A stretch of 64,000 nt of DNA, from the NCBI GenBank assembly GCA_963663405.2, contig CAXXSM010000130.1, forward strand, positions 64,001-128,000, in the 5' to 3' direction. Below, piece after piece: positions 16,699-63,044 of the stretch. Positions within the stretch are counted from its first letter, which is position 1, and the number at the start of each line of letters is the position of its first letter. The translations under genes and the position numbers were made by a program. The DNA is from a bacterium (GTDB lineage: Bacteria; Hinthialibacterota; Hinthialibacteria; Hinthialibacterales; Hinthialibacteraceae). The notes under the pieces are model-generated. The model ran no database searches, was not told the DNA's origin, and saw only the letters and a program-made list of their open reading frames with translations.

Positions 16699-17931
16699 TT
16701 AATGCAACCACCAGTTCGCTACACTCGTTCCACACTCGTATGGATTCAGATTTAGTTGAGGAGAAAATGCGAAACCGTTCTGAAAATATTCATCAATCAA
16801 ACCAGTAAAAACTGGTTCACCCAAATGATCTATGAGAATCAATACATCATTCCAATCACCGCAATCTAACAGATTCCCTCGAATATCGAACGCGGTCAAC
16901 TCTGTATTCCCAAGTTCTACATAAGAAGCTATATTCGAGATGGAAGTGATTAGATTGTTCGTACAATCTATATATTTATAAGTGGCGCTTGGATGGATCA
17001 TTAGTTCTTCCAGACGATTATTACTACAAGTAAGATAGCGCAAGGAAACATTGACTGATAGATCAAGGATTTTAAGTTGGTTATTATTGCAAAAAAGAGA
17101 TTTTAAAAGGGGATTCTGAGACACATCCAGAACGTTCAATTGATTGTTATAGCATTCGATATAATCCAACGCTAGGCTTTCCGTCAAATCGAGCGAGGTG
17201 ATCTGATTGTCCGGACAGTAGAGTTTTAATAATGAGGGAAGGTTTGAAACATTCAAATTCTCAAGTTGATTTCGGCTGCAATCGAGATACTGTAAAGATT
17301 CGAGATTCGATACGTCTAAGTGTGTCAAGAGATTATCGTCACAATAGATTTTATTATACGGCGCCTCCTTTGAAAGGATCAGAGAATTGATTTGATTTCT
17401 TTTACAACTAATAAATTCCATCTCAGGATTATTTAATAGATCTAAACTCTCTAATTGATTTTCTATACATTCAAGCTGGTTTAATATGGAATTGCTAGAA
17501 AGATCGAGGGTAGTGATTTGATTCCATGAGCAATACAGAAATTTCAATCGAGTGTTTTCTGAAACGTCTAAACTACTAATCAAATTATGGGCGCAACTCA
17601 GCTCTTTTAAGTCTGTATTATTCCATAAGTCCAAATGGGTCAAGGCGTTGTCTGAACAATTTAATCTGGTGATGTTGGTGAAATACTCGATTCCGGTTAA
17701 ATCTTGAATTTCTTTCCTGACACATAAAAATGATTCTGTGACCGCCGCCACTTGCTCCGCCGTAAATTCCCCGCCAGGATCGACTCCTATATATTCTTCA
17801 ACCACAGTACGAAAATTCGGATCAGGGAAATTTTCCGGTGTGTTGATATTTTGAGCAAGGGAGTCTGCGATTGGAAAGAGAAAAAGAAGAAGAAACGCGG
17901 TTGTTTTGGATGAACTCACAATGTTGAACAT
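16699..17931 (-). CDS. Secreted leucine-rich-repeat protein (internalin-like cap FPDPNFR)
   Basis: 21-aa repeats LxxLxCxxNxLxxLDL; signal peptide; start MFNIV matches paralog MFDIA; ends TSVANWWLH. Confidence 0.9.
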   Translation of the reverse strand: MFNIVSSSKTTAFLLLFLFPIADSLAQNINTPENFPDPNFRTVVEEYIGVDPGGEFTAEQVAAVTESFLCVRKEIQDLTGIEYFTNITRLNCSDNALTHLDLWNNTDLKELSCAHNLISSLDVSENTRLKFLYCSWNQITTLDLSSNSILNQLECIENQLESLDLLNNPEMEFISCKRNQINSLILSKEAPYNKIYCDDNLLTHLDVSNLESLQYLDCSRNQLENLNVSNLPSLLKLYCPDNQITSLDLTESLALDYIECYNNQLNVLDVSQNPLLKSLFCNNNQLKILDLSVNVSLRYLTCSNNRLEELMIHPSATYKYIDCTNNLITSISNIASYVELGNTELTAFDIRGNLLDCGDWNDVLILIDHLGEPVFTGLIDEYFQNGFAFSPQLNLNPYECGTSVANWWLH

Positions 17932-18066
17932 AAATTTTACACCTTTTTTCAAATTGATTTAAGATATATCTAAACTTGACGAAACTTATGACGAAACGGT
18001 GAGAAATCAAATAATCTATTACGAATTCATGGTTGAAACAATGTAAAATTTTCATATGCAGGTTTG

Positions 18067-18161
18067 TATGAAAATGAGTTTCTAGGATTTTCTCCATCGA
18101 GATTTCTTCTGCAACTCATTTTCATTTGCGTGTTGTAATCTCAATCATAATGGTTTATACG
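18067..18161 (+). mobile_element. Dispersed MITE-like element
   Basis: Inverted repeats ATGAAAATGAGT / ACTCATTTTCAT plus a conserved tail; absent from the paralogous region near 23200. Confidence 0.65.
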
Positions 18162-18841
18162 TAACGCTTCTTATATGGCCAATCTGCAAATTCATCTTTC
18201 AAATGGCTTTCATGAAAGGCGGGAAGCCTTTATGGATTCTTCAACCAGAAGAATATGCAGAAACCAATTATTGAGTGGATCAGTCAAAATTCTAATTTCG
18301 ATTTTCATTTCCTATTTTTTATGCGTTTTTTTTATTATATCATGAATTTTATAAGATTCCTGCTGTTTTTTATATTTCATACGATCTTACAGTTTTGTAA
18401 TAAATTGAGTTGAATAAGGTGGTTAGGATCTTCCTTTCAATCCTTTCCTTCCTTGGATGTAACGTTTTTTTCTTTATTAATTTTGTTCTAATTCTATCGA
18501 TTTAAAGGATTCCATGTAAAAATTTTATCATTAAAAAGGTTGTTCGACGAATAAAAAATACAAAAAAGTCTCTTTTCATCAATGAAAATTATACTATAGT
18601 AATAGTAGTTAACATTTTATTTCTGATGCGTTGATCTTGTGTGGTGAGTATATTCTTATCTCGTTTTTCTTTTACTTGTAATGAAATATTCTATTTTTTC
18701 TGTTTGTCTTTTTCTTATATGAGTTCATACAAATCGATAGTAAAAGGAGAATTGCATGATAAAAATGGTAGGATTCCTTTTGTAATATTTTTGTATTGAA
18801 GTTGAGGTAATAGTGAGTTCAATATTTGAATAATAATTACA

Positions 18842-18916
18842 GTGGAAGCATTGAACCATTTTTCTTTAATTGGTCGCCAATAGAAAAATGGGAAGCAAGT
18901 GGCGAACCTCCTCCAC
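18842..18916 (+). ncRNA. c-di-GMP-II-like riboswitch aptamer, copy 3
   Basis: Same core; perfect stem CCATTTTTCT/AGAAAAATGG. Confidence 0.75.
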
Positions 18917-18950
18917 GCAATCAAAAAATGGTTACGTTTTGGAGGTAAGA

Positions 18951-19092
18951 ATGTTTAAGAAATTAATTGTTAGTTTTTGTTTTATAGGAATTACCGGTTT
19001 ATTTCTGTCTCCCATAATCATGGCCCAGTCACCAATATCTTAAACTTTGCCTGTTCCTTGGTGTGGGGTGGATTATCAGGTTGAATTTCTGA
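18951..19092 (+). pseudogene. Truncated TED-protein paralog (signal peptide and first residues only)
   Basis: Hand translation MFKKLIVSFCFIGITGLFLSPIIMAQSPIS*TLPVPWCGVDYQVEF matches PVPWCDKDFMVHF. In-frame TAA at 19041; homology ends at a transposase fragment. Confidence 0.8.
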
Positions 19093-19094
19093 GG

Positions 19095-19280
19095 CGCCAG
19101 TTCACGATGCCAGCGAAGAATCGTATCCAGGGTGAAAATTGTCGAGATTTCCTTCAAAATTTTCCGCTCCAGAGTCTTTCCTTTGACCGCGAGCCGGGCC
19201 CTCTGTTAATCGTTGAGTAGAATATGCTTTTTGCCTTGGACTTCGAGGAGTAACTCGACCTCTGTCGCAGACAAAACGTT
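19095..19280 (-). mobile_element. Transposase remnant (N-terminal part of an integrase-core/rve IS transposase)
   Basis: Hand translation ...[45 protein letters not shown] resembles the LAxKGKxLGRK...[10 protein letters not shown] motif of such transposases; internal stop. Confidence 0.65.
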
Positions 19281-19281
19281 G

Positions 19282-20718
19282 TTAGTGAATGTCCCAGTTT
19301 TTCACTTCTACAGATCCGCCTATTTGAAACGTCTGGTAATACCGTGTAGTAAAACTATTCGGCCCTTCCGGTGGGGAATAAATGAGCATCTCACCAAAAT
19401 TATTGTCAGCGCCTCGTGAGATGACTATGTTCCCAGCCGGATCGAATTGAGCGTCTCGGATCGGATCCGCCCCCGCGATAAACGAGTCAAGTTCCGTACC
19501 ATCATCCATACTTAAGATATACACCATCCCATCAATCCCGTTACCAGAGGCTGCGAACCAACGACGCCCTTCATCTAAATCCAAAGACGGCCGGTCAACA
19601 ATGGCTTCCCATTCGCTCCGCATGAATTGCTCTCCATCTGGTCTAAATCCGTAGAGATCTCCCACCGAAGTCGTTACGTAGATATTTCCCTCAGAATCGG
19701 CAACGAGACTGAAGGGGGGCCCAGCGGCGGGAGGATCATAATTTAAATCCGGATCGAGAAATACTTCAGGAGGAGTCGTCCAGGGAAGCGCGGCGTCATC
19801 GGGTACATTGTATTTCATGATGCTGCCGGGAGTAATGCCGGGCAAGCTATGGTCAATGGTATAAATGACACGTTTCTCTCCCGTGCCCAAGATAAGCATG
19901 TCCGAAATCGTTCCATTCGTTGTAGGCGTTTTGCGGGGTTGGATATCGCCACTGTCTTTTGGCGGCGAATAATCAGCATGTAAGAAGATTTGGAATCCCT
20001 CGTCGGTGAACTCAGAATTACAGATGGTGTTCCACATCGTCCGATTGACATACGTGTTGGTATACACCCGTCCATCCGGCCCGAAGTTAAGCGCAATGGG
20101 CGCGTCATCATTGCTCGCAAAAACAAACGACATGTTGAGTTCCGGGAAAGCCGTGTCCAGCGATCCTCCCCACCAGGTTCCATCCGGAGACATAAAGTAA
20201 ATGCCTTTAAATACGTTTAAAGAATCGATAACCTTCGTTCGATTGACACTATTGCGACGTCCCTGAATGATATAAATTCGTCCAAAATTCGATCTGGATT
20301 GGTCCTTCCCAATTAAAACACCACGAGGACGATGAAAGACGTTTTGGGGATCGACTGGATTGATGCGTTCCCAGCTGGTATGGCCATTGTCCGAAGCGTT
20401 AATTTCAAATGTGTAAGTACCATCGGCAACGACTTGTCCCGCATCATCAAGACCGTCCCAGATAACATGGTTCATACCTTGCGCAGTGGAACCGGACAGC
20501 GTTCGTACAACAACACCATCTGATACACGTAGGATACGTAATTCAACACCGTTATCCGCGGCCTCATTGAGTAAATAATGAAATTCGCCTCCCACGCCTT
20601 CAGTGGAATCGACCTCAACCGACAACTGGCAGGCGAATACATTCGCGTCAGCGGATTTTGGGAGTAAAACAGCCAAACCGAAAATAAACAAATACCCTAA
20701 ATTGGAAAACCGTATCAT
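19282..20718 (-). CDS. Secreted protein, FlgD-Ig-like domain plus beta-propeller-like region
   Basis: Signal peptide; VRTL...WDGLDDAGQVVADGTYTFEI is FlgD-Ig-like; ends VEVKNWDIH. Confidence 0.7.
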   Translation of the reverse strand: MIRFSNLGYLFIFGLAVLLPKSADANVFACQLSVEVDSTEGVGGEFHYLLNEAADNGVELRILRVSDGVVVRTLSGSTAQGMNHVIWDGLDDAGQVVADGTYTFEINASDNGHTSWERINPVDPQNVFHRPRGVLIGKDQSRSNFGRIYIIQGRRNSVNRTKVIDSLNVFKGIYFMSPDGTWWGGSLDTAFPELNMSFVFASNDDAPIALNFGPDGRVYTNTYVNRTMWNTICNSEFTDEGFQIFLHADYSPPKDSGDIQPRKTPTTNGTISDMLILGTGEKRVIYTIDHSLPGITPGSIMKYNVPDDAALPWTTPPEVFLDPDLNYDPPAAGPPFSLVADSEGNIYVTTSVGDLYGFRPDGEQFMRSEWEAIVDRPSLDLDEGRRWFAASGNGIDGMVYILSMDDGTELDSFIAGADPIRDAQFDPAGNIVISRGADNNFGEMLIYSPPEGPNSFTTRYYQTFQIGGSVEVKNWDIH

Positions 20719-20772
20719 GGTTCTTCGTCCTTTCCTTATTTATTTTCCTCTTCATGAATCAAACCACTCAGA

Positions 20773-21600
20773 TTAAGGAACACGAAAATTAGCCGCTTGA
20801 GAGATTTCTTCGGAACTCATCGCTTCCCTGGCATTGGGTGGAAAGGAAAGCAATGCGTCGGCTGTTTCCTTGGCCAATTCACTGTCTGTGGTTTGGATGG
20901 CGAAGTGGATATAGGTAACCGTACTGTTGGCTGGAATCGTTATATCCGTCCAAGCATACCGATAGTCTTCCGAACGCTGGAATACTTCATCGATACCATC
21001 CACTGTTCCATTTGAGTTCCAGACATGACCAACGAAAGGATCACTCCCATCATTGTCACCCGTGATGACATAAGAATCACTGGTTTCCAGTTCCGTATCT
21101 CCGTCGGATGTCGCCACAATATACGTGTGATCATCGGATCCGAGATTGCCGAAAACCGCAATTTCCGCTGAAACCGGTTGATCGGTTGTGTTCGTGAGAA
21201 TTTCCAGCCACCGTCCGTACACTTCCTCTGGAGAAACAAAGAGTTTTCTTTGGACTACCAGAGCCCCCATCGTCTGGGTTTCCCAAACATACTCATTGCC
21301 ATCCGAATCAGGATCGTACTCTTTAATCAAGGCTATATAAGGCCGGAATACCCCATTCTCCCGGACCGCCAGAAAATAGCAGCCGTCATAGGCGTCACTG
21401 CTGCCATCCTCCAGCGCGCCGCTCCTTACACCCGCGTCATAAACCATCCCTTCACCATTCCGTAAATCACCGCATTGGTTGCCGTCTTCATTATCAAATG
21501 GTGGTGGCAGTGTCTGACTGCCCGCATCTACACTCAATAAGAGAATCACCAGCGTTATCCAACTACACCATTGCCATCGTTCATGCTTCATGATGAACAT
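20773..21600 (-). CDS. Secreted hypothetical protein (acidic, beta-rich)
   Basis: 275-aa ORF with hydrophobic N-terminus and GGAG RBS; about 55 bp from the next gene. Confidence 0.7.
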   Translation of the reverse strand: MFIMKHERWQWCSWITLVILLLSVDAGSQTLPPPFDNEDGNQCGDLRNGEGMVYDAGVRSGALEDGSSDAYDGCYFLAVRENGVFRPYIALIKEYDPDSDGNEYVWETQTMGALVVQRKLFVSPEEVYGRWLEILTNTTDQPVSAEIAVFGNLGSDDHTYIVATSDGDTELETSDSYVITGDNDGSDPFVGHVWNSNGTVDGIDEVFQRSEDYRYAWTDITIPANSTVTYIHFAIQTTDSELAKETADALLSFPPNAREAMSSEEISQAANFRVP

Positions 21601-21712
21601 CTCCCTTCATTGATTTAGTATAAGACTGTCAGCTCTCGTACTCTGAATACGAATCTCTCCCCACTAACTGGCAGAAATGCCTTCTATAAATTACAATAAA
21701 TATTATTTATAC

Positions 21713-21742
21713 TAACATAAATTTAACATAACACTAACATAA
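21713..21742. promoter_or_regulatory. Three direct repeats TAACATAA with exact 11-bp period (candidate response-regulator site)
   Basis: Repeats start at 21713, 21724 and 21735, upstream of the 21600(-) gene. Confidence 0.5.
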
Positions 21743-21832
21743 ATAAATTAAGTTAGCAAGACTCCTTACTAAGAATAAAGATCAATTAATTCATCAAAAA
21801 TGATTTGTGTAGATAGGCTTTTTTTGAGAGAT

Positions 21833-23066
21833 CTAATACAAAAACCCAATGGATGACAGGGGTAGCGCATTCATATGGATTCAGAGTATTTTGCGGTGAA
21901 TAGGCGACTCCATTGTTTAAGAATAGGCCATCTTCATCGAAAAATACTGGTTCCCCAATGTGATTCAACAGTGTCTTCACATCGTTCCAGTCCTCGCAAT
22001 CCAGATTGTTTCTCCGAATATCGATCGCGATTAACACTTCGATGTCTTGTTCTACATAGCCGGCTAGATTGGAGATGGAAGATAATTGGTTATCGTTGCA
22101 AGAGAAGCGTATGAATTTCGCATTTGGATGGATCGTTAATTCGCTTCGCTCGTTATCACCACAACTGAGAAAGGACAGCGATTCATTGGCTGAAAGATCG
22201 AGGATATCGAGCTGGTTTCCACTGCAGAAAAGGGATTGTAGTGCGGGATTTTGATATACATTGAGGATCGGCAATTGGTTGTTTGCGTATTCAAGGTAAT
22301 TTAATTTTGCGCTGTTTCCAAGATCGAGTTCCACGATCTGATTATCCGAGCAATAAAGTTTCTCTAATGAAGAGAGGTGAGATACGTCTAAAGTTAGGAG
22401 TTGATTGCGGTTGCAATCGAGAAATCTCAACTCCTCTAAATTCGACATGTTCAAATGAGTCAGTTGGTTGTCATCGCAGTAGATTTTATCGTACGGCGCT
22501 TGTTTTGAAATCACTAACGTTTTTATTTGATTTCTTTTACAACTGAGATAACACATGTTTGGATTGTTTGGTAAATCTAAACTTTCTAACTGATTCTCAA
22601 GGCATTCAAACTAGACCAAGGCTATATTGTCCGATAGATCGATATTTTTGATGTGGTTCCGATAACAGTACAAGTATTTCAATTTGGGGATATCAGAGAC
22701 ATTGAGACTGCTGATTTGATTGTTGTAACAACTCAAAGTCTTTAAATCGGTGTTGTTCCATAAATCCAGGTGGGTCAAAGCATTGTCAGAACAGTATAGT
22801 TCTTGAAGACTCGTAAAGAATTTAATACCGGTCAAATCCTGAATCTAACTCCCCAGACAGATTAGAGGACCTGTCATCAACGCAACATTTTCCGCTGTAA
22901 ATTCATCGCCCGACTCGACTCTCATGAATACTTCAACCGCTGTGCGGAAATTAGGATCGGGAAAATTATCGGGTGTGTTGATGTTTTGGGGTAAGGAATC
23001 TGCAATTGGAAAGAGAAAGAAAAGAAGAAACACGGTTGTTTTAAATGCGCTTGCGATGTCAAACAT
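21833..23066 (-). pseudogene. LRR protein pseudogene, paralog of 16699-17931
   Basis: Three ORF pieces are in one frame, separated by TAG stops at 22845 and 22611 (E and Q in the paralog). A +1 base at 21840-21844 masks the TPVIHWVLY* end. Confidence 0.85.
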
Positions 23067-23886
23067 AAATTTTACAACTTTCTTCTTAATGGACTAAAGA
23101 TATATCAAAACTTGACGAAACTTAGGACGGAACGGTGAAAAACCGGATACTTTTATTACGAATCTATGGTTGAGGCGCTGTAAATAATTCATTGTTAAGA
23201 GTAATAAACGGTTCTTAAAGTCCAATTTGCAAATTCATCTCCCTTTAGGTCTTCATGTAAGGTGGGAAACCTTGATGGTTTCTTAAGGAGATGAACATGC
23301 ATAAACCGATATTTGAATGAATCTGGTTAAACTTTTCATTTCGATTTTCTGATCATCTTTTTTTATGCGTTACTTATTATATCATGATTTAAAATGACTC
23401 CTTCTGTTTTTCATATTTCATGCGATCTAACAATCATGGAATAAATTGAATTGAATAAGGTGGTTAGGATTTTTCTTCCAGTCATTTCCATTCTAGTGTG
23501 TAACGTTTTATGATTCTAATTTTTTTTAAAAATCTATCGATTTAATTGATTTTATGTTAAAATTTAATTAGAAAAGAGGTTATTCGACAAAAAAAAATAA
23601 CAAAAAAACCTCTTTTCATTAATGAATATTGTGCTATAGTAATAGTAATTAACATTATGTACGGGGTGAATTAACATTCTGTATTGATCAGCGTATATTC
23701 TTGTTCTTATTTTTTATGTAATGAAACATTGCGTTGAATTTGTGTTTGAGTTTCTTTTTTTAAAAATTTGAAAAAAAATGAAAAGGAGAATTGTATGCTA
23801 AAAATGTAGGGATTCCTTCTCTAATTTTATTATGATTTTGGTTGAGGTGATAGTAAAGAAAGTGTTTTTAAAAAAACTTGATTAGA

Positions 23887-23961
23887 GTGGAAACGTTGAA
23901 CTATTCTTCTTTAATTGGTCGCCAACAGAAGAATGGGGAGTCAGTGGCGAACCCCCTCCAC
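23887..23961 (+). ncRNA. c-di-GMP-II-like riboswitch aptamer, copy 4
   Basis: Same core; stem CTATTCTTCT/AGAAGAATGG; different downstream hairpin sequence with the same topology. Confidence 0.75.
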
Positions 23962-23991
23962 GAGATTTTTCTCGCGAAGGAGAGAAGAGAA

Positions 23992-24909
23992 ATGAAGAAA
24001 CGATATGTCGTCTTAGTAAGTTGTATTGTTCTTGGTCTGGCTATGGCGCCAGTCAGTTATTCAACTCCATCAGAAGGGCCTTATTATTATCCTCATTTAG
24101 GTCATCTTTTGGAATTTCCCAATGGGCCGAATTGTACTCCTGGAATTGAAGATTATCAAGTAGACAGTTATTTCGGAGTTTCTATTCTTCCATGTGGTGA
24201 TCTTCCGGGATGGATCAATGATGCGATCAATATTTTTGTCGTCTGGTTTGATACACCATATGGTTTGATAAATAAAAGTCCGCGGGAGAGAATTGAAAAT
24301 GCGATTGGACAATCGCTACCTCCAACACAAGATATTGTCGCATGGATTTTCACGTTTATCGTGCCGCCGGATATTCCACAAAAGGTGATTCCCGGCTGGT
24401 GCGCCAATCTAAGGGACTACGCGAAATTAAACGATGTGTGTTGTGGGCTGACGATTCATGGAACGGTTGATATTTCTCCTTTAGGATTTTTAGATTGGAA
24501 TTGGTGTAACCGTACGTTGACATCCCGCTTTACTACTCCTATGGTCAATCAATCGGGTAATCTGCTCGAAGTGAATTTCCTGATCGATCAGTTCCGTATG
24601 AATTTCGTGATGTATCCGGATTTAAACACTCGCAATATTTCGTGGCGGGCGATTCAGCGTGTGATTTGGGATTTGACACAGGATTTGAGTCTCCCTGGCA
24701 CTCATCAAAATGGTTATATTTGTCTTACAAACAAAGATTTAGAAGATGTAGATATCCTTAAAACATGGATCGCCGGTTTGGATTTAGAGGGCAATATCCC
24801 GATTTGCGCGTTCTGTTATTTGACGATTGTCATCTATTGTGAAGGTGGACAAGAAATTCTCGTCGAAGTGCCGTGGTGGCTGTATCTGATTCTTTACGAT
24901 TTACATTAA
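23992..24909 (+). CDS. Secreted thioester-domain-like protein, divergent copy 3
   Basis: ATG at 23992 starts a signal peptide (MKKRYVVL); IPGWCANL, AIQRVIW and GGQEILVEV align with the motifs of copies 1 and 2. Confidence 0.65.
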   Translation: MKKRYVVLVSCIVLGLAMAPVSYSTPSEGPYYYPHLGHLLEFPNGPNCTPGIEDYQVDSYFGVSILPCGDLPGWINDAINIFVVWFDTPYGLINKSPRERIENAIGQSLPPTQDIVAWIFTFIVPPDIPQKVIPGWCANLRDYAKLNDVCCGLTIHGTVDISPLGFLDWNWCNRTLTSRFTTPMVNQSGNLLEVNFLIDQFRMNFVMYPDLNTRNISWRAIQRVIWDLTQDLSLPGTHQNGYICLTNKDLEDVDILKTWIAGLDLEGNIPICAFCYLTIVIYCEGGQEILVEVPWWLYLILYDLH

Positions 24910-24945
24910 TTTAACTCGAGAAGATTCAAACATTTCGGATCAGAT

Positions 24946-24976: not shown

Positions 24977-25007
24977 TTTATCGTACATTATCTGAACGAA
25001 TGGAGTT

Positions 25008-26243
25008 TTAATAAACGGTCCAATCCGGCACGGCTGTTTCACAATCGAATGGATCGAGATCGTTTTGTGGAGAATAACCGAATCCATACGTTAATTGTGT
25101 TTGATTCCAAGGAACAAAAACAGGCTCCCCGATTCGATCCAATAATAGAATCACATCCTCCCAATCATCACATTGAAGATTGTTATATCGAACGTCTACA
25201 AGCGCTCCCAACGCGGCGCCGATATATTCATTGCTTACGATATTTGATAGATTCGACAGCTGATTGTTTTGACATTGAAGGGAATTCAAAACAGCGCTAT
25301 TCGGTAAGATAAGTTCTGTCAAGAGATTGTCTTGGCAGATACATTGTCCAAGGGATTCCGCTGATGAAACATCCAATTGCGTTAATTGATTGGAGGAACA
25401 GATTACGGATCCTAGAGCGATATTCTGAGTGAGATCGATCGTATGGAGAAGATTATCGCGGCAATCCAGTGTTTCCAATGTGACGTTGCTCGATAAATCC
25501 AACGTTGTGAGCCGGTTGCTGGCGCAGTTGATTTCGGCGAGGGCCGCGCAGCCGCTTAGTTCGAGTGTTCCCAGCTGATTGTCATAACAATTCAATACTT
25601 CCAAGGATGTGTTGTTAGAGATGTCCAAACTCGCAAGTTGGTTGCTGAAACATTTGAAGGTTTGAAGTTTATCGTTCTCCGATATCGAGAGTTCATTCAA
25701 GCGGTTGCGGCTGCAATCGGCGATTTGAAGTTTTTTGTTGTAGGAGAGATCCAACGTCTCGATTTGATTGATAAAGCAATGAAGATGTTTCAGGTTGGTG
25801 TTGTTGAAAAGTTCGAGACTTGTGAGTTCGTTTTGATCACAGACCAGTATTTTTAATCCAGTGTTTTCATAGAGATATAACTCTGTCAATTGATTCGCGT
25901 GACAGTTCAACTCCTCCAAGGCGGTATTCATTGTTAAATCTATACTTTCCAATAGGTTATTGTTGCATATAAGTTTGGTTACATTAGGGAAAAAATGAAT
26001 GCCGGCCAAGGAACTGATCTCACGGGCTGGACATTCCAAGGCCTTTGTGGCCGCCGCCGCTTCTTCCGCCGTGAAAGCGCCGTCTGACTCAACCTCCATA
26101 TATTCCTCAACCGCCGCCCGGAAATTTGGATCGGGAAAATTCTCTTCTGTGTTGATGTTTTGCGCGAAGGAATGAATGCTTGTTAAGGCCAGAAGTAGAA
26201 TCAGAAAAGCAGTTTTCCCAGAATTCTTACATACGTTCATCAT
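25008..26243 (-). CDS. Secreted leucine-rich-repeat protein
   Basis: Same AQNINTxENFPDPNFR cap and 21-aa LRRs; ends TAVPDWTVY. Confidence 0.9.
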   Translation of the reverse strand: MMNVCKNSGKTAFLILLLALTSIHSFAQNINTEENFPDPNFRAAVEEYMEVESDGAFTAEEAAAATKALECPAREISSLAGIHFFPNVTKLICNNNLLESIDLTMNTALEELNCHANQLTELYLYENTGLKILVCDQNELTSLELFNNTNLKHLHCFINQIETLDLSYNKKLQIADCSRNRLNELSISENDKLQTFKCFSNQLASLDISNNTSLEVLNCYDNQLGTLELSGCAALAEINCASNRLTTLDLSSNVTLETLDCRDNLLHTIDLTQNIALGSVICSSNQLTQLDVSSAESLGQCICQDNLLTELILPNSAVLNSLQCQNNQLSNLSNIVSNEYIGAALGALVDVRYNNLQCDDWEDVILLLDRIGEPVFVPWNQTQLTYGFGYSPQNDLDPFDCETAVPDWTVY

Positions 26244-26540: not shown

Positions 26541-26870
26541 ATGATAACGATTGTTGAGACAGGGCAGCTTATAAACAAGGCTGAAAAATTAATGTCAGCT
26601 GGGGAGAAGGAAGAGCTCGTCAATTTTGTCGCTGCAAATCCCAAAGCGGGTGATTTGATCCCGAAGACAGGAGGCGTTCGTAAACTTAGATTTGCGCGGC
26701 AAGGTCAAGGGAAAAGTGGATCTTTTCGGATTATTTATTATTACGACTCAATGAATCCTGTATTTCTCTTTACAGTTTTTGGAAAAAAATGAAAGAGCGA
26801 ATATAACAGACGCAGAAAAAATGCTTTTTATAAGGCCATCCAGGTTTTAAAGAAGGAACTGAAATCATGA
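26541..26870 (+). pseudogene. RelE/HigB-family toxin, frameshifted
   Basis: GDLIPKTGGVRKLR..GKSGSFRIIY motif. Removing one A from A7 at 26783-26789 gives GKNERANIT...KELKS*, overlapping the antitoxin start (ATGA). Confidence 0.8.
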
Positions 26871-27166
26871 GCAAAGCAGGGGAAGAAATTTTAGCCGGTA
26901 TTAATGACGCGATTGCAATGGCGAAGGGTGATAAAAGCCGTGGCCGCGCATATACGATTATCAACTCAACAATTGATGTTAAGGCTATCCGTCAAAAGAC
27001 TGGGATGACACAAGAACGATTTGCTGATACATATGGACTTTCCTTGTCCACTTTGAAAAAATGGGAATCGAAAACCGCTGAACCGGAAGGAGCGGCGAAA
27101 GCGTATTTGACCGTTATTGAACGGGAGCCTCTCATTGTGAAAGAAGCGCTTTGGAAGGTGGATTGA
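26867..27166 (+). CDS. HigA-like XRE HTH antitoxin
   Basis: IDVKAIRQKTGMTQERFA...TLKKWE..EPEGAA; directly downstream of the toxin. Confidence 0.85.
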   Translation: MSKAGEEILAGINDAIAMAKGDKSRGRAYTIINSTIDVKAIRQKTGMTQERFADTYGLSLSTLKKWESKTAEPEGAAKAYLTVIEREPLIVKEALWKVD

Positions 27167-28548: not shown

Positions 28549-29367
28549 TTAGATGTACCACCAAATCAATAGCAAGCCAAGGGGGATCAGGTAGACGCTG
28601 AAGTAGTGCAGGCGCCGTTTTTGGATCAGCCAGACCAACAGCCATAAAAAGACCACTCCAGAAACGAGAGAAGCGAAGAATCCAACCAGGGCCTGCGCCG
28701 GTGTCACGTTAAGAGAAGCGTGGGGCAGTTGATAGACCATCGCCGCCGCGATCGCAGGGATCGAGATTAAAAACGAGTATTCCACCGCGATCGTACGCGA
28801 GACGCAGAGGAGCAATGCGATACCCACCGTCGTTCCGGAACGGGAGATCCCCGGTAGAACGGCGATTCCTTGCGCCAATCCCATGATGGACGCGAACAGC
28901 CATAGATTCATGGGCAGTGAATTATAGTCCTCAGTGTTGGGAGCGCTCCGGAATCGGGTGGAGAAGAGAAAGAGCCCCATGAAAAAAAACGCGCAACCGA
29001 TCGCCAGCAGACTTTCCCGCATATAGGTTTCCGCCAGGGGCCGCAGCGTCAGGGCGATGCAACATGTGATCGCGAAACTGAGTCCGATCGCGAGGAGCAA
29101 TTGGCGCTGGATTTGAAGCTCCGGCGACTTTGGTCCAGCCTGAAACCAGGAAACGAAAGCGCGGCAGAGTAGAAACAGGCGTGTCCGGAAATATAAACAG
29201 ACCGCCAGGAGAGTCGCGATATGAAGAAGGACGTCGAAAAATAAAAAACTTCGCGCGTCCAAATCGAGCCACGTTTCCGCCAAGACCAGATGGCCGGAAC
29301 TCGAGATAGGAAGAAATTCGGTTAAACCTTGTAAGACTCCGAGGAACAACGCATCGAGGACGTTCAT
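28549..29367 (-). CDS. uppP: Undecaprenyl-diphosphate phosphatase
   Basis: QGLTEFLPISSSGH and PGISRSG signature motifs. Confidence 0.95.
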   Translation of the reverse strand: MNVLDALFLGVLQGLTEFLPISSSGHLVLAETWLDLDARSFLFFDVLLHIATLLAVCLYFRTRLFLLCRAFVSWFQAGPKSPELQIQRQLLLAIGLSFAITCCIALTLRPLAETYMRESLLAIGCAFFFMGLFLFSTRFRSAPNTEDYNSLPMNLWLFASIMGLAQGIAVLPGISRSGTTVGIALLLCVSRTIAVEYSFLISIPAIAAAMVYQLPHASLNVTPAQALVGFFASLVSGVVFLWLLVWLIQKRRLHYFSVYLIPLGLLLIWWYI

Positions 29368-48338: not shown

Positions 48339-48341
48339 GAT

Positions 48342-53969: not shown

Positions 53970-54811
53970 ATGAAGAGAGTCTTATTTTTTCGCGTTGCTA
54001 GTCGTTGTATTCGCTCCTCTTTCAATCGCGTAATCGATTATAATTGTCACCGATGCGCCTGAAGGTGAAGTCGAGGGATCGGGAAACTTGGGTGATTTTT
54101 TACGGGGTCTTGGGTATACGGTCGACGCCGATCCGGGTGATCCAGACCAGAACGAGGGTGGAAACAGCGCTTTTCGTGATGTTCTGACCGATGAAGAGAT
54201 TGCGCTTCTTGAGATCTACGATCTCGTTATTGTTCATCGTTCGACGAACAGTGGTGATTTTGATCAGAGCGCTATTTTCTGGAATGAGCTGCAAGTTCCC
54301 CTATTGCTTGGAAGTTCTTATTTGGGGGCGCAACACAGATCCTCGTTGGAATTGGGTGATTGGCCCTACCGCCAGAGAAACTTCACAATACTTGGAAGTC
54401 GCTGAACCGGATCACCCGATTTTTACGGGGATTGAAATAGTAGATGGCAAAGTCGATCTCTATACGCAAGATCAAGATATTGATTATCTTGATACCGGTG
54501 GTCAAGAGGGATTGGGGAATGGAATTCTTCTGGCGGAAACCGAGTTAAACTTAGGCACGGCCATAGCTGTTTGGGATGGGGATGGCTCAACGCTGGTTCC
54601 TTTCCAACCCGACGGGATTGATGAGCATTCTTATAGGCGGGTGTTTTTTGCTATGATGCGCTATTTTGAAGACGATGATACTGTCGATATCACTTTCGAG
54701 CAATATTCGGAAAATGGGCTCCAACTGATGGCTAACGCCGTTGAATATACCATGACAGGCGAAGTCACGGGTGGACCTATTACATCTGTGGCGACTTGGA
54801 GTCTTTATTGA
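53970..54811 (+). pseudogene. Disrupted secreted protein with C-terminal TSVATWSLY tag
   Basis: AGGAG then ATG at 53970; +1 in T6 (53985-53990), in-frame TAA at 54031, +1 in G5 (54324-54328). The corrected frame reads MKRVLFFALLVVVFAPLSIA*SIIIVTD...YLGRNTDPRW... Confidence 0.75.
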
Positions 54812-54906
54812 TCGATTGAATGCCGATCATGAATTAGAAATTTTTTAGATATATAATGAGTGTGGGTATAATTTGAGTTTTTCAATACATGTTTTGCTTT
54901 CAAGAG

Positions 54907-55028
54907 GCTGGTCAGCAAGGGGAAGGTTTTTTTCTCCCCTTGCATAATTTTCGGAACGTAGCCAGGGCAGAAAAAAGCCTTGCCCTGGGCGCCCGCGCAA
55001 GCGCCGGTTCTTGCCCTGGTTACCTGCG
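54907..55028 (+). repeat. Structured two-hairpin dispersed repeat, copy B
   Basis: Homologous to 33219-33345; followed by the terminator-like AGGCGGTC..GCCGCCTTTTT at 55039-55063. Confidence 0.65.
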
Positions 55029-55094
55029 TATTTATAATAGGCGGTCCTTGTGGCCGCCTTTTTATATTCTTACCAATTATTTATTATATTTTGG

Positions 55095-56340: not shown

Positions 56341-57221
56341 GACCGCAATTCAAATCCTTTCCCTGATTCGTGCAGGATTAATTCGTATAGATAACAGCGG
56401 GCTTTCCATCGATTGAGCGCGTGGATCATTTGGCGCGATTCTTCCTCCTTTTGTCTGAGGAGTGTTTGGAGATCGAGCGTTTGTTTTGTTGTCTGTTCTA
56501 ATAAATAACTGAGGTTATTGGTATGTTTCACAAGAGCTTGTTTCTGACCGGTCGTGGATTCTGAGATTTGCTTCATCTCTTTTTTAATGATGTCTTCCAG
56601 ATTGGCGGCGTGTTTGCGCAGTTCCTTGTTCTCTTCTCCGACGAGATTCGTGAGGTGTTTTGTATTCTCCTCGGTGAGATGTTCAAGATTACTCGCATGA
56701 GCGACGCTGGTGCCTAAAAGGCTGTCGATGTTTTTTACATGCTCCAGCAAACTTTGATTCTGTTGCTGGGTTAGATTGGCGACATTTTTCATTTCTTCAC
56801 GCAGAAGCCGTTCAAGGTTATGTGAATGGTCTGTGTTTTTATCTAAAAGATCTGATAAGTTCTGTGAGTGGTTCAGAAGTTTTTGATTTTGTATTTCGAT
56901 TAGATTGGCGAAATGTTTCAGGCTTTCCGCAGTGAGATGTTCAAGATTGCGTGAATGATCGAGCAGTTTTTTACAGTGCTCTTCGAGAATTTCGGTTTGC
57001 TTCCGAACTATATTCTTGAGATCAGCAGTCTCTTCGTTAAGAAGATGTTCGAGGTTTTTCGAATGATGGCTGCATTCCTTAAGGAGATGTTCGAGATTAT
57101 GTGAGTGTTCCATCAAGCCATCGCGATGACGCTCCACCATCGCCAGAGATTCTTTCAGTGGATTGGTTAGGGTACTTTTTTTTTGTATTTTTTTGGGAAG
57201 ATTCTTGACTGTCATCCTCAA
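56337..57221 (-). CDS. Coiled-coil protein with about nine HxxN[LI] repeats
   Basis: HSHNLE, HSKNLE, HSRNLE, HSQNLS, HASNLE, HAANLE and similar; overlaps the methyltransferase start. Confidence 0.7.
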   Translation of the reverse strand: MRMTVKNLPKKIQKKSTLTNPLKESLAMVERHRDGLMEHSHNLEHLLKECSHHSKNLEHLLNEETADLKNIVRKQTEILEEHCKKLLDHSRNLEHLTAESLKHFANLIEIQNQKLLNHSQNLSDLLDKNTDHSHNLERLLREEMKNVANLTQQQNQSLLEHVKNIDSLLGTSVAHASNLEHLTEENTKHLTNLVGEENKELRKHAANLEDIIKKEMKQISESTTGQKQALVKHTNNLSYLLEQTTKQTLDLQTLLRQKEEESRQMIHALNRWKARCYLYELILHESGKGFELRS

Positions 57222-57590
57222 AACCCTTGTATATGATTAAACGATTCCTAACACAGTGTTAATTAATCATTTTATCGTTTTTCGAGAGGCCTGTACAACC
57301 GCTAAGGAATAATGAAACGGTAAAAAAAGAACTTTCCTTCCGCGATGGCCTTATTGACGTCCCAATCAGGGAGTATCGATAATCAGGGCTTTTATGCGTC
57401 TATATACCGTGTACAATATTCGTGGAGTTTTGAAAGATGAATAAAACACACAATCCACGCAGCGCCATCAATTTACTTCGCCTGATCGCTCTTACGATCG
57501 TGACCGGCGTTGTCTATGTATTGCTCAAAATTCAGGGAAAACTGCGGATGTAATTCCGTTTACCTTCTATCCACTTTTCCACTTTCCGAA

Positions 57591-59157
57591 TTATTCTTCT
57601 GTTTTTCGTTGGAAATAGATCATCCGAGCGTAATAGGTTTCTTTTGTCGCAATCAGTTCCGGCGCTTTGAAATGGCGTTCAAGGAATTCCCGGACCGGTT
57701 GAAGATGGGGATCCTGGTCTTCGAAAATTTGATGGTAATATTTCCCATACATCACACAGAGATCGATCGGCAGCGTTTCCCAATATGCGGTGGTTTTTTT
57801 CATATCTTCTAATGTGAGATACTTGCGGCCGGCGGTATTCATAAATGGAGGAATGCGGACTTGGCGATTTCCCCGGATGGAAGGAGGAACTTCTTTGTCC
57901 GTCCAAATATAAAACGCTGAATTGACAAAACAGAGAAGGTATTCTGACGGACAACGCCGTTGGATAAAAGCGGCGAAACCACGTTCATCCTTCAGTGTAA
58001 TATTTGGATATTGCCAATTTGATCGCGGCCAGAACGGCGCCGTACAAAGGAGTATCAAGACGATTGGAATGGCGGGATGGAGAAGGATTGACATCCTGAC
58101 GGGTATTTTTTCCATTAACCAGGCACAAAAACCACCCGCGAGGATACAAGCGGGCGCGGTGATCACCAGCATGTAATGCGGCCAGACGTGACTTAAAGCG
58201 AAGAGGTTGACTCCAAATTCCAAGACCAGCCAGACAGCGGGTATCCACAACAGCCGGAATCGTTTTGAAAGAATTGCCATGACGCCAAACAACGCAAGAA
58301 ACCAGACGAGAGGATTAAAATGCGCGATCATCCGGAATTCCATCCACCGGTCCAGCAGTGTGTAATGAAAGAATCCAGCCATCGCGGTGTTGGCCCCTAT
58401 CAGATCGTAGAAAAAAGGCTCCATCGCCCCAATCGAGACGATCACAATCAATAGAAGAATCAATGGAGGTAGAAATCCGGCCAAGAACCACATCAGGTTC
58501 CTGGCAATGGACTTTTTTTCTCCATAAAAAAAATCCCGCCAGCGCCAGAATAGGAAGAATCGTCACTCCCGTCTGTTTATTCAATATACAGAGAGCGCTG
58601 AATAGACCCGCCAGCGTCATGTATAACGCTTGGTTGCGTCTGCGTCCTATGGTGAATAGGGCGAGCGCCCAGATCGACAATTCCGGCGCCAAAGTTGAGA
58701 CATGCAAGGCTTTCGCCCAAATCGCGGAATAGGGATCGAACGCCAACCAGCATGCGGCGAATAATCCTGTCTTTTCATCTCTCAACTCCCGTCCAAGAAG
58801 CCAAATTGCGAAGATGGAAGAGATGGAGAATAGAATCATGAATATCCGGACAGGAACGATTGGAACGCTTGAAAACAGGAAAAACGGGAAACTCAAGATC
58901 GAGACAAGTGGCGGTTTGTTCAGATGAACATCTAAATAGGGCAAATGCCCCCGCATCCATTCTCTCCCTTGCATGAGATAATCGCCTTCATCTACATTCG
59001 TGCCACAAAAGAGAGTCCAGCTGCGAAGGATCAGCGCCAGCAGCAGAACAGCCGCAATTGGAAGATACGGCTCCATCCAGTTCTTTGAAGGTATTTGAAC
59101 TTGTTGTGCTCTATTTTGGGAAGAAACGATGGAATGGCTATCTGCTTGGCTATCCAT
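57591..59157 (-). CDS. ArnT/PMT-like (GT-C) membrane glycosyltransferase, split by one frameshift
   Basis: NVDEGDY..G..PY.D...KPPL and KQ motifs; removing one base near 58513-58533 fuses the two ORFs. Confidence 0.75.
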
Positions 59158-59178
59158 ACCAAACCTTTCTTGGAGGAA

Positions 59179-60240
59179 CTAGGTACCTTTATTTATATTC
59201 ATGGATTTCCCGGACGGGAGAATATCCAATATAGTTTCGGGAATATTGTCGTTATATTCCGGATCGAAGAGATGACACGACACGGTCCGGTCTCCTATTT
59301 GTCTCAATTGGGGTTCTACAACGCCGCAAGGTTCGAAACAATACCGGCAGCGGGGATGAAAGTGGCAGCCTGGTGGGGTGTCCATTGGATTGGGAACATC
59401 GTCTTCTAGGAGTATCCGTTTTCTCTTGCTTGTTGGATCGGGAATGGGAACCGCTTCAAGAAGGGCTTGGGTGTAAGGATGTTTTGGTTTGGAAAAGAGC
59501 GCGTCCGTTTCAGCGAGTTCAACGATTTTCCCTAGATACATGATGGCCATGCGGTCGCTGATGTGACGGGCGATAGATAAATCATGTGTGATGAAGAGAT
59601 AACTCAATCCAAAACGATCCTTCAAGTCCATCAGTAGATTGACAATTTGCGCCTGGATTGACACATCCAGCGCTGAAACCGCCTCATCGGCTATGATTAG
59701 TTCCGGTTCGACGGAAAGGGCGCGGGCGATGCCGATGCGCTGACGCTGCCCACCGGAAAACTCATGTGGATACCGTTTCAGATGATCTTCCCCCAATCCG
59801 ACGGATTGGAGCAGTTCAATACATCGTTCCCGGCGCGCTTGCCGTGTGGCCGCAAGGCGGAAGATCGACAACGGTTCGCTGATTGCGCTACCTGCGGTCA
59901 AACGGGGATTGAGCGAGGAATATGGATCTTGAAATACGATCTGTATCATTTTCCGGTATGGGCGCATCGCTTTTTGAGATAGCGTCAACAGATTGGGGGA
60001 ATCCTTGAACCGCACATCGCCACTCGAAGCGTCCAGAAGACCCAGAATCATACGTCCCACTGTTGTTTTTCCACATCCGCTCTCACCCGCTAGACCCAGC
60101 GTTTCCCCTTTGTGAATCGTAAATGAAACACCATCCACTGCTTTGACATGATTCACGACACGCCCGAATACCCCTTTGCGGACGGGGAAATGTTTTATTA
60201 GATCCGTGACGGTTAAAAGCGCTTCTTTATCCACTTTCAC
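59179..60240 (-). CDS. Oligopeptide/dipeptide ABC transporter ATP-binding subunit (OppF/AppF-like)
   Basis: GESGCGKT, FQDP..SLNPR, SGGQRQR, HPYTQAL and GCHFHPRC motifs. Confidence 0.95.
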   Translation of the reverse strand: MKVDKEALLTVTDLIKHFPVRKGVFGRVVNHVKAVDGVSFTIHKGETLGLAGESGCGKTTVGRMILGLLDASSGDVRFKDSPNLLTLSQKAMRPYRKMIQIVFQDPYSSLNPRLTAGSAISEPLSIFRLAATRQARRERCIELLQSVGLGEDHLKRYPHEFSGGQRQRIGIARALSVEPELIIADEAVSALDVSIQAQIVNLLMDLKDRFGLSYLFITHDLSIARHISDRMAIMYLGKIVELAETDALFSKPKHPYTQALLEAVPIPDPTSKRKRILLEDDVPNPMDTPPGCHFHPRCRYCFEPCGVVEPQLRQIGDRTVSCHLFDPEYNDNIPETILDILPSGKSMNINKGT

Positions 60241-60434
60241 TTTGCTATGTCCTCAGAATCGTTGTAACACATAGTGCCCAGAACGGATGAAACGGTCAAT
60301 GGCTGACAGAAGGATCAAGAAAAGCGCGGACAAGTATCCAAAATGAAATTTTTTTTTATTGAGGATAAAAACGTATATAATTACTGTATTAGTAATTTAT
60401 TATTCTTATTCAATCACATTTTTTGGAGGTCAGT

Positions 60435-63044
60435 ATGAGAAAAACGTATTTCTGCATTGGTTTGGTCTGTTTGGGAATGGTTTTGGGAATGGGAGTTTGG
60501 GCGGATGAATGGGATCCAAGGGATGATACGCCCTATGGGGCGACAAATTTAGGCGTCATTCCTTACGATGGGATTGAACATCCTGATCATACTCTGAATC
60601 CGAGTGATACAGAAGATTTTTTCCGTTTCACACTTCGAGGAGGATATTCATATGGGATTTATTCGATGGGTTATTATAACGCAGATTTAACTGGATATAT
60701 GATTGACGAGGAAGGCCAGGAATATTGGGATGAAGAATCTGGTTTTAATTCAAACTTTGCTTTTATTATTTCTCCAAAGGAAAACACGAGTAAGGAATTT
60801 ACACTGCGAGTAATGAGACAAACTGATGCAGGTGATTACAAATATGATTTGTATATTGAGGCTTTTGATGATCCCTGGGATCCGAATGAAGATACGGATA
60901 CAGCGACAAATTTAGGACGGCCCACGGATAAGGAACAGACCTTAGGTCCCCTCGTTTTAGGTGGGATTAATTACGATGATGGAGGCGCAAGTGATTCTAG
61001 TGATATTATTCAATTCTTCCTGGAAAAAGATAAAACGTACACGTTTTGGACGACAGGGCAAAATGATACGCGTGCCACTTTGCGGCAAGGGTCAACCTTA
61101 GGAACGATTTTAGGGAATGATGAAGATAGCGGTCCGGACAAGAACTTCAAGATCGAATATACACCTACAAGTGATGTCCGAGTTTATCTGAAAATTGGAA
61201 TGAATGCGGATGAGGGCGCGTATACGCTTCACTACCTTCATGAACCGGAAGTGGAACAGCTTGATCCCTGGGAACCGGATCACCCCTACGACAATGCGAC
61301 GCCCTTAGATGTACCCACTGATCAATGGCAAACCAATGGACCTCATCTTCTTAAAAAAAATATTGATGATGAAGATTATTTCCGATTTGAACTGCCCTCA
61401 GGACAAAATTATATTTTTAGGGCGAAGGGCAATGCGAAAGCGGATGGACAAATCTTAGATAAATATGGCCGTGTCGTCAAATTAGAACCCTTTAGCGGGA
61501 ATCCAGAATATCCATTTGTCATTGATTACCGTGTATTGTATCAAGGTGTCTATTATATCGCCGCCATATTATTTGCACCGGAAGATAACGTTGAATATTC
61601 CTATGAACTTTCCTATATCGGTTCCCATGAACCAGAAGCGGTGGAATTAGATACACCCACGGAAGAAGAACAGGTTCTTTCGTCGCAGAAATTGGAACCG
61701 AGTGATATTCATTGGTATAAGTTCGTTCTATTTGAAGGAGTTCGATATGAATTCTGGTCTACTGGCGGTTCTGATGTCTACGCGGAACTCTACAAACACG
61801 ATACGAGCAGGCAAGTTCAGGTAGACGATGATAGTAGTGATGGGATGAATTTTAAAATCGACTACAAACCATGGGAATCCGACGCGTTTTACCTCGCCGT
61901 ACGATCGAACGATCATGGGGAAATGGCGGAATACGATCTTCATTATAAAATCGTTACAGTCAGTACGGATACAGTGATTGGTGGTGAAATCGTCAATTCC
62001 GCCGTTCTAGAGACTGTCGATATCCCCATTTATGTCGAGAATCTAGCCGAAACGAAATCGATGACGTTTGATGTTGTTTTTGATTCGGATAAACTCGCTT
62101 GGGGATCGGACGCCCGTGTGATCCGGTTGGATACGATGTTGGCCGCCTGGGTGAATATTCAAGCCAACGAGGTTGAGCCGGGCCGTCTTCGCGTCGCGGC
62201 TACCGCGTTCGCCGGCTCTGGTGTTGAAAGAGACGGGGTGTTGGTGATTCTCCGGTTCGATGTTGGAAGCGGTGTCGAAGAAAATTCTCATACAACAATT
62301 TCTTTCGAGAATCTTAAAGATGGGCTGCAAGGCGCGCAGACAGATGATGTTCTTATCATTTTCACGATCAAACCCGAAAAAGGGGATGTGAATATGGATG
62401 GGGAGATCACCGCGTCTGACGCGCAGCTGGCGTTTCAAATATCACTCGACTCCGCCGGTGATGTGACCGAAGATCAAATCTGGGCGGCGGATATGACCGA
62501 GGACGGCGTTGTCACGGCGGAAGACGCTCAACAGATTCTTCTCGCGGCGGCGGGGATTAATCTTTCTGGGAAAACCGTTCGTCCTCAAGCCTTGGGTGAT
62601 GAAACGGAGGGAGATGATTATACGATCATCACGGTGGAACGGGTACAGGCCGCTCCTGGTGATTCGGTCTCTGTGCCTGTGCGAATCGATCCAGACCGCG
62701 ATATCCGGGCGATTTTCGTCGAATTTTCTTATGACCGGAACAAGATGTCGTTCGTTGGGGAAGATTTTGAGGGAACGATGCTTGAACGATTCTATTTTGC
62801 TGGAACCAGTGAATATTATCCGGGCAAAGTGCGTCTAGCCGCCGCCGCTTCTCTCAATCGTCCCATCCAGGAAGAGGGTGTGCTGTGCAAACTGAATTTC
62901 AAGGTCAATGATGACGCTTCGGGTGTTTCCACAATTTCAATCAAAACCGTTCTGGATGATCTTCTCGGCGCTGAAACCGTGACCGGTTATGTCGCGATTC
63001 TCGAAGAAGAGATGACAACAATTGGGAACTGGATGGTGTATTAA
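60435..63044 (+). CDS. Secreted protein: about four PPC-like beta modules + cohesin-like + dockerin + cohesin-like
   Basis: GGAGG then ATG at 60435; duplicated Ca-loop GDVNMDGEITASDA / ADMTEDGVVTAEDA; V.IPIYV..FDVVFD and VSVPV..FSYD cohesin patterns; ends TTIGNWMVY. Confidence 0.75.
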   Translation: MRKTYFCIGLVCLGMVLGMGVWADEWDPRDDTPYGATNLGVIPYDGIEHPDHTLNPSDTEDFFRFTLRGGYSYGIYSMGYYNADLTGYMIDEEGQEYWDEESGFNSNFAFIISPKENTSKEFTLRVMRQTDAGDYKYDLYIEAFDDPWDPNEDTDTATNLGRPTDKEQTLGPLVLGGINYDDGGASDSSDIIQFFLEKDKTYTFWTTGQNDTRATLRQGSTLGTILGNDEDSGPDKNFKIEYTPTSDVRVYLKIGMNADEGAYTLHYLHEPEVEQLDPWEPDHPYDNATPLDVPTDQWQTNGPHLLKKNIDDEDYFRFELPSGQNYIFRAKGNAKADGQILDKYGRVVKLEPFSGNPEYPFVIDYRVLYQGVYYIAAILFAPEDNVEYSYELSYIGSHEPEAVELDTPTEEEQVLSSQKLEPSDIHWYKFVLFEGVRYEFWSTGGSDVYAELYKHDTSRQVQVDDDSSDGMNFKIDYKPWESDAFYLAVRSNDHGEMAEYDLHYKIVTVSTDTVIGGEIVNSAVLETVDIPIYVENLAETKSMTFDVVFDSDKLAWGSDARVIRLDTMLAAWVNIQANEVEPGRLRVAATAFAGSGVERDGVLVILRFDVGSGVEENSHTTISFENLKDGLQGAQTDDVLIIFTIKPEKGDVNMDGEITASDAQLAFQISLDSAGDVTEDQIWAADMTEDGVVTAEDAQQILLAAAGINLSGKTVRPQALGDETEGDDYTIITVERVQAAPGDSVSVPVRIDPDRDIRAIFVEFSYDRNKMSFVGEDFEGTMLERFYFAGTSEYYPGKVRLAAAASLNRPIQEEGVLCKLNFKVNDDASGVSTISIKTVLDDLLGAETVTGYVAILEEEMTTIGNWMVY

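Follow-up and report, generated by a model that had tools for sequence, protein, structure and literature searches.

The window analysed here, a 64,000 bp stretch (G000:C130:64001-128000) of the genome G000 of an uncultured Hinthialibacterota bacterium (8.44 Mb, 82% complete), encodes exported proteins of unrelated kinds that share a ten-residue tag at the C-terminus, built around a Trp four residues from the end. Judged from the sequences that carry it, the tag is very probably a signal for sorting or anchoring, whatever its exact kind. What the data show directly is that the tag exists and stands at the terminus, which proteins carry it, that known signals can take its place, and that the genome encodes peptidases related to PorU, the attaching enzyme of Bacteroidota. 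The original prediction, made from the letters of the window, had proposed a sorting or anchoring signal. This central claim is well supported by the enrichment of the tag on signal-peptide proteins, by the lack of a matching library model, and by the exchange of the tag with PEP-CTERM and type IX secretion system (T9SS) domains.

The Tag and Its Statistics

The gene set of G000 comprises 6572 genes, called with a dicodon model rather than a standard gene finder. The background set is 39141 ends of non-coding open reading frames (ORFs). Trp is found at position −4 in 277 of the 6572 genes, vs 72–139 genes at each of 11 other positions examined. The pattern first proposed, [TV]x[VI]xxWx[LIV][YH], is present in 76 genes and at 0 of the 39141 non-coding ends. 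With an iterated profile and a calling threshold of 7, 210 genes are tagged; 18 non-coding ends pass, a rate at which about 3 tagged genes would be expected by chance. The tag is genuine and goes beyond chance.

The consensus from the 210 genes is [TSV]-[SPAG]-[VI]-x-[DN]-W-x-[LIV]-[YFH]. The earlier consensus was too narrow; the real motif is wider, and the tag need not be flush with the end. It is flush in 163 genes, followed by one residue, a polar one, in 44, and followed by two residues in 3. An additional 12 genes score over the threshold without the Trp, which is replaced by Phe or Tyr in 10 of them. The hydrophobic residues are the most conserved part of the tag, and the Trp is the best kept of all. 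Thr, Ser, or Val is found five places ahead of the Trp in 196/210, and 90% of tags end in Tyr, Phe, or His. Internal profile matches stay at the background rate of 0.4–0.8 per 10,000 positions, vs 246 at the end. All four Val codons and all six Leu codons are used in the tag. Frameshifts and split genes are frequent on many contigs of G000, including in secretion operons and in one gene for a C25 peptidase. These suggest assembly errors, and therefore the counts of intact genes are low estimates.

Cargo Proteins

The genome-wide scan of the motif against signal-peptide status, which had been proposed as a check, shows enrichment. By a strict signal-peptide heuristic, 146/210 tagged and 1731/6362 untagged genes are positive, an odds ratio of 6.1. 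By a looser one, applied to genes of at least 200 residues, the counts are 166/190 and 1806/3904. Both are home-made heuristics rather than SignalP, and many of the tagged genes that are missed look like fragments or genes with wrong starts. The tagged proteins fall into 95 sequence families, 63 of which have a single member; some, of 41 and 26 members, are joined via shared domains. Untagged paralogues of tagged proteins end without the tag.

The tagged cargo is extracellular in type, according to a domain scan in which 49 tagged proteins were compared with Pfam and a subset of 29 with NCBIfam as well. The domains include CBM9, LamG, CotH-LTD, β-helix, sulfatase, and choice-of-anchor X, all above cut-off, and in addition esterase, WD40, and leucine-rich repeat (LRR) domains. 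Two tagged sulfatases bear twin-arginine leaders. The tag is found on 0/17 exported haem-motif proteins, 0/19 exported Pro-Thr-linker proteins, and 0/15 proteins with a C-terminal dockerin-like motif, the last being too few to test. The exclusion of lipoboxes from the tagged set is not significant (3/142 vs 45/1352, p 0.62). None of the 210 tagged proteins reaches a hydropathy of 1.8 over 15 residues within its last 40, i.e., there is no C-terminal membrane helix. Nor is there a basic cluster at the tagged ends, where the final 10 residues average a net charge of −0.9. A tripartite sorting signal is ruled out by the lack of helix and basic cluster.

Exchange with Known Sorting Signals in One Family

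The strongest evidence comes from the family of a window protein encoded at 19282–20718. The hits to it considered here number 156, namely the 150 best and 6 further close ones. The ends were inspected in the 71 chosen as family members, two of which are incomplete (fragments or matches over part of the length); none of the remaining 85 hits has the tag. The C-termini of the 71 are the tag in 19, a tag variant in 7, a PEP-CTERM in 6, a T9SS-type domain in 14, a dockerin-like tail in 4, and something else or a cut end in 21. The different tails come after the same conserved body, and the alignment places the tag and PEP-CTERM at the same spot. In NCBIfam, TIGR02595 is over cut-off in 6/6 PEP-CTERM tails, and TIGR04183 in all 6 tested of the 14 T9SS-type tails; TIGR04183 or TIGR04131 is above cut-off in T9SS-type homologues. 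Since the tag replaces PEP-CTERM and T9SS domains in one family, it likely does the job of a sorting signal.

Among the named loci of this family, T9SS domains are from Bacteroidales, PEP-CTERM from Armatimonadota, and the tag from Sumerlaeota. A Phycisphaerales locus has a PEP-like tail that is below model detection. In the named loci the tail type follows lineage. Homologues are also named from Ca. Hinthialibacter and OLB16-type genomes, which points to Hinthialibacterota as the probable phylum of G000. As a separate observation, the family has two more recurring C-terminal modules (P0030 and P0127; P0046, P0080, P0124, and P0129). The first ends in F-Y-R-x, with no NCBIfam tail match in the two scanned, and the other has a Y-x-D-D-G-S-like core. 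These are possibly further undescribed sorting domains.

The tag is apparently undescribed as well. The sorting models of Pfam and NCBIfam, WxL included, formed the second check that had been proposed, and 31 tails, each 32 residues long, were compared with them. Pfam gave nothing at E up to 1, and NCBIfam gave three single chance hits only; short motifs can be missed by such models. No publication on the tag was found by title or abstract start in a literature search whose scope left most subscription papers and supplements outside.

Distribution across Genomes

The phylum set consists of 35 Hinthialibacterota genomes, with a whole-genome tag count for G000 and sampled DNA for a number of others. 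Tags are present in the sampled DNA of G004, G007, G009, G010, G011, G013, G014, G016, G029, and G033, and variants in G019. G029 gave 0 tags in 180 kb and then 2 in 416 kb. No tag was found in the sampled DNA of G021 (400 kb) and G030 (140 kb), both unproven negatives, or in three further samples of 15–20 kb. Dockerin-like tails abound in G021 and G029, both of which are poor in tags. Of 30 loci from the phylum of a named Sumerlaeota locus, 19 contain a gene that passes the threshold and 5 a Trp variant that does not. One has a dockerin-like tail, 2 extend past the end of the locus, and 3 resemble flagellar FlgD. One or two residues after the terminal aromatic are also common in the Sumerlaeota tags. 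As read from these sequences, then, the tag recurs across Hinthialibacterota and in Sumerlaeota.

Comparison with Known Systems

By position and cargo, the tag seems to act like a T9SS or PEP-CTERM signal while belonging to neither family. The T9SS type A C-terminal domain (CTD; TIGR04183), a substrate of PorU (NF033707, PDB 6za2), is likewise a helix-less C-terminal signal on Sec-exported cargo, and stands at the same place in the family above; PorU-related C25 enzymes are present here. The CTDs differ in length: they are ~70–80 residues long, or 43–55 for the short domains of PMC11969387, vs 10 residues for the tag. They differ also in context, as no SprA, PorZ, or canonical PorV was found here and as Pro follows the presumed cut in 20% of tags. 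A canonical T9SS is ruled out by the lack of SprA, of PorZ, and of any TIGR04183 match in the tagged proteins scanned. Across five genomes TIGR04183 had no match, though 14 controls were silent too; the model did pass on the homologues.

The PEP-CTERM (TIGR02595)/exosortase system, along with LPXTG and GlyGly-, MYXO-, and PGF-CTERM, resembles the tag in occurring many times over in a genome, on signal-peptide proteins that are unrelated to one another, and PEP-CTERM shares its position in one family. GlyGly- and MYXO-CTERM cargo is exported by the type II secretion system (T2SS), according to bioRxiv 10.1101/2023.06.07.544157. Unlike these tripartite signals, the tag is without a hydrophobic helix or basic cluster, and exosortase (PF09721) is absent from G000. 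The dockerin–cohesin pair is a further parallel, dockerins being alternative C-terminal modules on homologues and in related genomes and cohesins being present in 35/35 genomes; however, a dockerin is a folded calcium-binding domain and the tag a decapeptide.

The first half of the tag resembles the PorU cleavage site, summarized as X/(GSA)(VLI) for the 17 sites in Table 2 of PMC4560394; a PorU-like sortase did not figure in the original prediction. By our own count of the sites in that table, Thr precedes the cut in 9. After the cut come G/S/A in 16 and then V/I/L in 13, with D/N/E/Q at the fourth place in 12. At the matching places of the 210 tags there are 89 T, 105 G/S/A, and 181 V/I/L, and about half of the tags have D or N directly before the Trp. 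When only the first half of the profile is used, the score is 4.4 on the linker before T9SS domains vs 1.6 on control stretches (38 proteins). With a two-block tag model, the front of the type A domain is in the top tenth of windows in 9/14 homologues. These scores are leads only, as the tests were post hoc and on related sequences.

PorU-Related C25 Peptidases

C25 peptidases (PF01364) are found in 35/35 Hinthialibacterota and 73/75 Sumerlaeota genomes. G000 has two large exported paralogues, at G000:C89:70234-75569, which is split in this assembly, and at G000:C61:17838-21656. They match the PorU model NF033707 with E values of 1e-68 and 1e-54, below cut-off, and as single sequences against the PDB they match PorU 6za2 and no gingipain. 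His and Cys are intact in both. The related C25 enzymes score 99–232 bits against the PorU cut-off of 420 and have the invariant His and Cys. They differ from PorU in being larger, in having CARDB domains, and in forming their own clade. In a quick tree of 66 C25 domains, the G000 paralogues cluster with Sumerlaeota enzymes (51/66 rows, SH-aLRT 96); the 3 Bacteroidota PorU and the 4 C25 enzymes from PEP-CTERM organisms fall outside this group. Predicted complexes of both catalytic domains with a 32-residue tagged tail scored 0.00; the controls were unfolded too, making the result uninformative either way.

Type II Secretion and Pilin-Like Genes

G000 has 8 secretin loci, at least three of which lie in gene runs resembling T2SS operons, and 122 pilin-like genes with near-identical N-termini. 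The pilin family is expanded in 35/35 phylum genomes; two Sumerlaeota genomes, with 50 and 39 matches, show the expansion too, and two PEP-CTERM genomes, with 2 and 3, do not. A pilin-like gene adjoins 22/210 tagged vs 53/1273 untagged signal-peptide genes (2.7-fold, p 5e-4). The original prediction had suggested a T2SS-like machine as reader of the tag. The enriched adjacency agrees with this suggestion, but it is circumstantial, most tagged genes (188/210) being without such a neighbour.

Two loci are recorded here as separate observations. At G000:C125:18496-22661 (L235), a weak PorV-like barrel gene lies directly 3′ of a cohesin-domain gene, likewise in G010. At G000:C143:47821-58200, a run of pilin-like genes includes two proteins of more than 1000 residues, with no secretin nearby.

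A Model for Tag Function and Its Alternatives

We suggest, tentatively and with a little less than even confidence, that type II secretion exports the cargo and that the tag on it acts as a minimal sortase signal. The model is built by analogy with PorU, as follows. The cargo would cross the inner membrane by Sec, rarely by Tat, and then fold. The folded cargo would exit via one of the T2SSs. The W-x-L-Y block would serve as the recognition handle, and a PorU-related C25 cysteine peptidase would cut near T/[SAG][VI]x[DN], removing ~8–9 residues. The peptidase would then attach the new C-terminus to a glycolipid or polysaccharide of the envelope, in the manner of PorU in Bacteroidota. The tag may be what is left of the T9SS type A domain after reduction to its front, i.e., cleavage linker plus first strand. 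The broader proposal, that two uncultured phyla have a PorU-type sortase without the type IX translocon, T2SS export, and a ten-residue signal cut down from the T9SS CTD, is possible but more doubtful.

A number of observations weigh against the sortase model. Several concern the T9SS parts. No SprA was found: TIGR04189 is over cut-off only in the Paludibacter control, 1/5 genomes (G000 itself being 82% complete), with two 40-residue hits far below cut-off in G014. TIGR04189 was the model used, as PF14349 matched nowhere, controls included. The PorZ model NF052228 is over cut-off only in the control, with partial propeller matches elsewhere. PF19572 (PorV) is absent from G000, and PorV-like barrels (NF033709) are weak in 3/5 genomes, all below cut-off, with none in G014 and G065. 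Because SprA and PorZ were not found and the PorV-like barrels are weak, two parts of the Bacteroidota system, its shuttle and its acceptor carrier, are missing. Others concern the peptidase. C25 presence is unspecific, as C25 peptidases are also found in the PEP-CTERM genomes tested (2/2); only 7/66 rows of the tree are from other phyla; no tagged gene is near either paralogue in G000; and G021 has C25 enzymes yet 0 tags in the 400 kb sampled. As to the site, the full (GSA)(VLI) pair is present in just 89/210 tags, Pro follows the presumed cut in 41/210, Val precedes it in 48, and the best-kept residue, the Trp, is outside the PorU site. PorU cleavage is, moreover, described as sequence-independent in the abstract of PMC4804311, so that likeness to the site need not mean cleavage. 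Finally, one tagged protein (a tag variant), at G000:C115:15134-17194, has two predicted membrane helices and looks membrane-anchored. The start of this protein is presumably BlaR1-like.

Alternatively, the tag may never be cut. As an uncut docking peptide, it would place its Val, Trp, Leu, and Tyr in the groove of a surface or periplasmic receptor, non-covalently and in dockerin–cohesin style. The Pro and Val variants around the presumed cut, which are common, fit such a peptide, as do the strong conservation of the hydrophobic residues and the dockerin-like tails that substitute for the tag in homologues and are frequent in the tag-poor G021 and G029. Against it, docking could work from any part of a protein, but matches away from the end do not exceed background; the Thr/Ser/Val five before the Trp is kept in nearly all tags; and no receptor was found. 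We consider this explanation unlikely, if worth keeping in mind. Less probable again is an export address without anchoring, which a type II secretion system or a pilus-like machine would read, perhaps via the expanded pilin-like proteins. The pilin-like neighbours, the secretin loci, the pilin expansion in the 35 phylum genomes and two Sumerlaeota genomes and not in the two PEP-CTERM genomes, and the twin-arginine leaders of two tagged sulfatases are in keeping with it. G021, however, has 30 pilin matches and no tag in its sample, nine-tenths of the tagged genes have no pilin-like neighbour, and the likeness to the PorU site is left unexplained. To our knowledge, moreover, T2SS signals are not linear tails.

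The tag is also short, hydrophobic, and terminal, mostly with a Tyr, Phe, or His end, as might be expected of a periplasmic quality-control or PDZ-type ligand, or of a terminal signal like that of the β-barrel assembly machinery (BAM). A carboxylate-binding pocket, however, would not be expected to accept the 47/210 tags with one or two residues past the aromatic, whereas a BAM β-signal or PDZ ligand has its aromatic or hydrophobic residue fixed at the very end. The cargo is not barrel-like, and the replacement of the tag by PEP-CTERM or T9SS domains in homologues argues for a surface location, making a ligand of this kind very improbable. That the tail plays no part in trafficking, being a structural element or a DNA repeat that has spread, is scarcely credible. 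Some families are indeed joined by shared domains, but the tagged proteins make up 95 families, 63 of them singletons, and untagged paralogues lack the tail. The codon variety speaks against a repeat, and in the AlphaFold2 model of the 19282–20718 protein (mean pLDDT 83.8) the tag residues 473–478 lie past the last strand with pLDDT < 50. Family spread, codon variety, and low pLDDT largely rule out both.

The tag marks the likely surface proteome, ~3% of genes here, in two phyla known mainly from metagenomes, and a one-line profile could annotate hundreds of hypothetical proteins per genome. If a C25 peptidase is the tag sortase, the tag would show the role of PorU-like peptidases outside Bacteroidota and how a T9SS signal shrinks. 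Under the broader proposal, the PorU attachment step would be a separate, portable module, and the tag would be the shortest sortase signal known to us in outer-membrane bacteria. A ten-residue anchoring signal could also serve surface display.

Tag-Bearing Genes of the Window

Two secreted LRR proteins carry the tag on the minus strand, one encoded at 16699..17931 and ending in TSVANWWLH (tag at ~16702–16728, profile score 21.7), the other at 25008..26240 and ending in TAVPDWTVY (~25011–25037, score 21.1). The 19282..20718 gene, also on the minus strand, encodes a secreted protein with FlgD-Ig and β-rich, propeller-like parts and ends in VEVKNWDIH (~19285–19311, score 15.0). On the plus strand, the gene at 60423..63044 encodes a secreted PPC, dockerin, and cohesin protein ending in TTIGNWMVY (~63015–63041, score 17.1). 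As a query, this cohesin–dockerin protein found no relative among named genomes. It adjoins a pilin-like gene at 63159..63767 (plus strand) with a prepilin N-methyl motif, GspG-like below cut-off, which is one of the 122 in the genome.

Two further tags are on broken genes. An LRR paralogue at 21833..23066 (minus strand) is interrupted by two in-frame stops, and its frame shifts by one base within the tag, which is therefore a remnant. The gene ending at 54811 (53970..54811, start approximate, plus strand) is split over frames in the assembly, its last piece ending in TSVATWSLY (~54782–54808, score 21.1). No signal peptide is convincing on the frame-1 ORF that ends there. Farther upstream, near 53970–54030, other frames encode a stretch that resembles one, and hence the gene is taken to be broken in the assembly; it is not the small, intact acidic protein that had been described.

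The C-termini ending at 16699, 19282, 25008, 54811, and 63044 are exactly as the original prediction gave them. The sixth, at 21833 after a one-nucleotide correction, is recognizable only as the remnant just described. Signal peptides had been claimed for all six, which is doubtful for the frame-1 ORF at 54811. The domain assignments (LRR, FlgD-Ig, cohesin plus dockerin, prepilin N-methyl motif) were upheld. As for the claim that only exported proteins of the window end in this way, every called gene other than the five tagged ones scores −6 or lower, but Trp at −4 without the remaining motif is also found in a small protein (26867–27166) and a membrane protein (28549–29367). By itself, Trp at −4 is an unspecific marker.

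Other Recurring Modules near the Tagged Genes

Five tandem exported Pro-Thr-linker proteins, without the tag, are encoded in window positions 1–11128 and upstream on G000:C130 from 60168. They share a C-terminal region of ~330 residues with 67–72% identity, and the two scanned have no Pfam match. The exported proteins at 13766–14737 and 15646–16617 of the window, which the protein at 23878–24909 resembles, have last 180 residues that recur at the end of 11 other G000 proteins. This recurring end appears to be a second C-terminal module.

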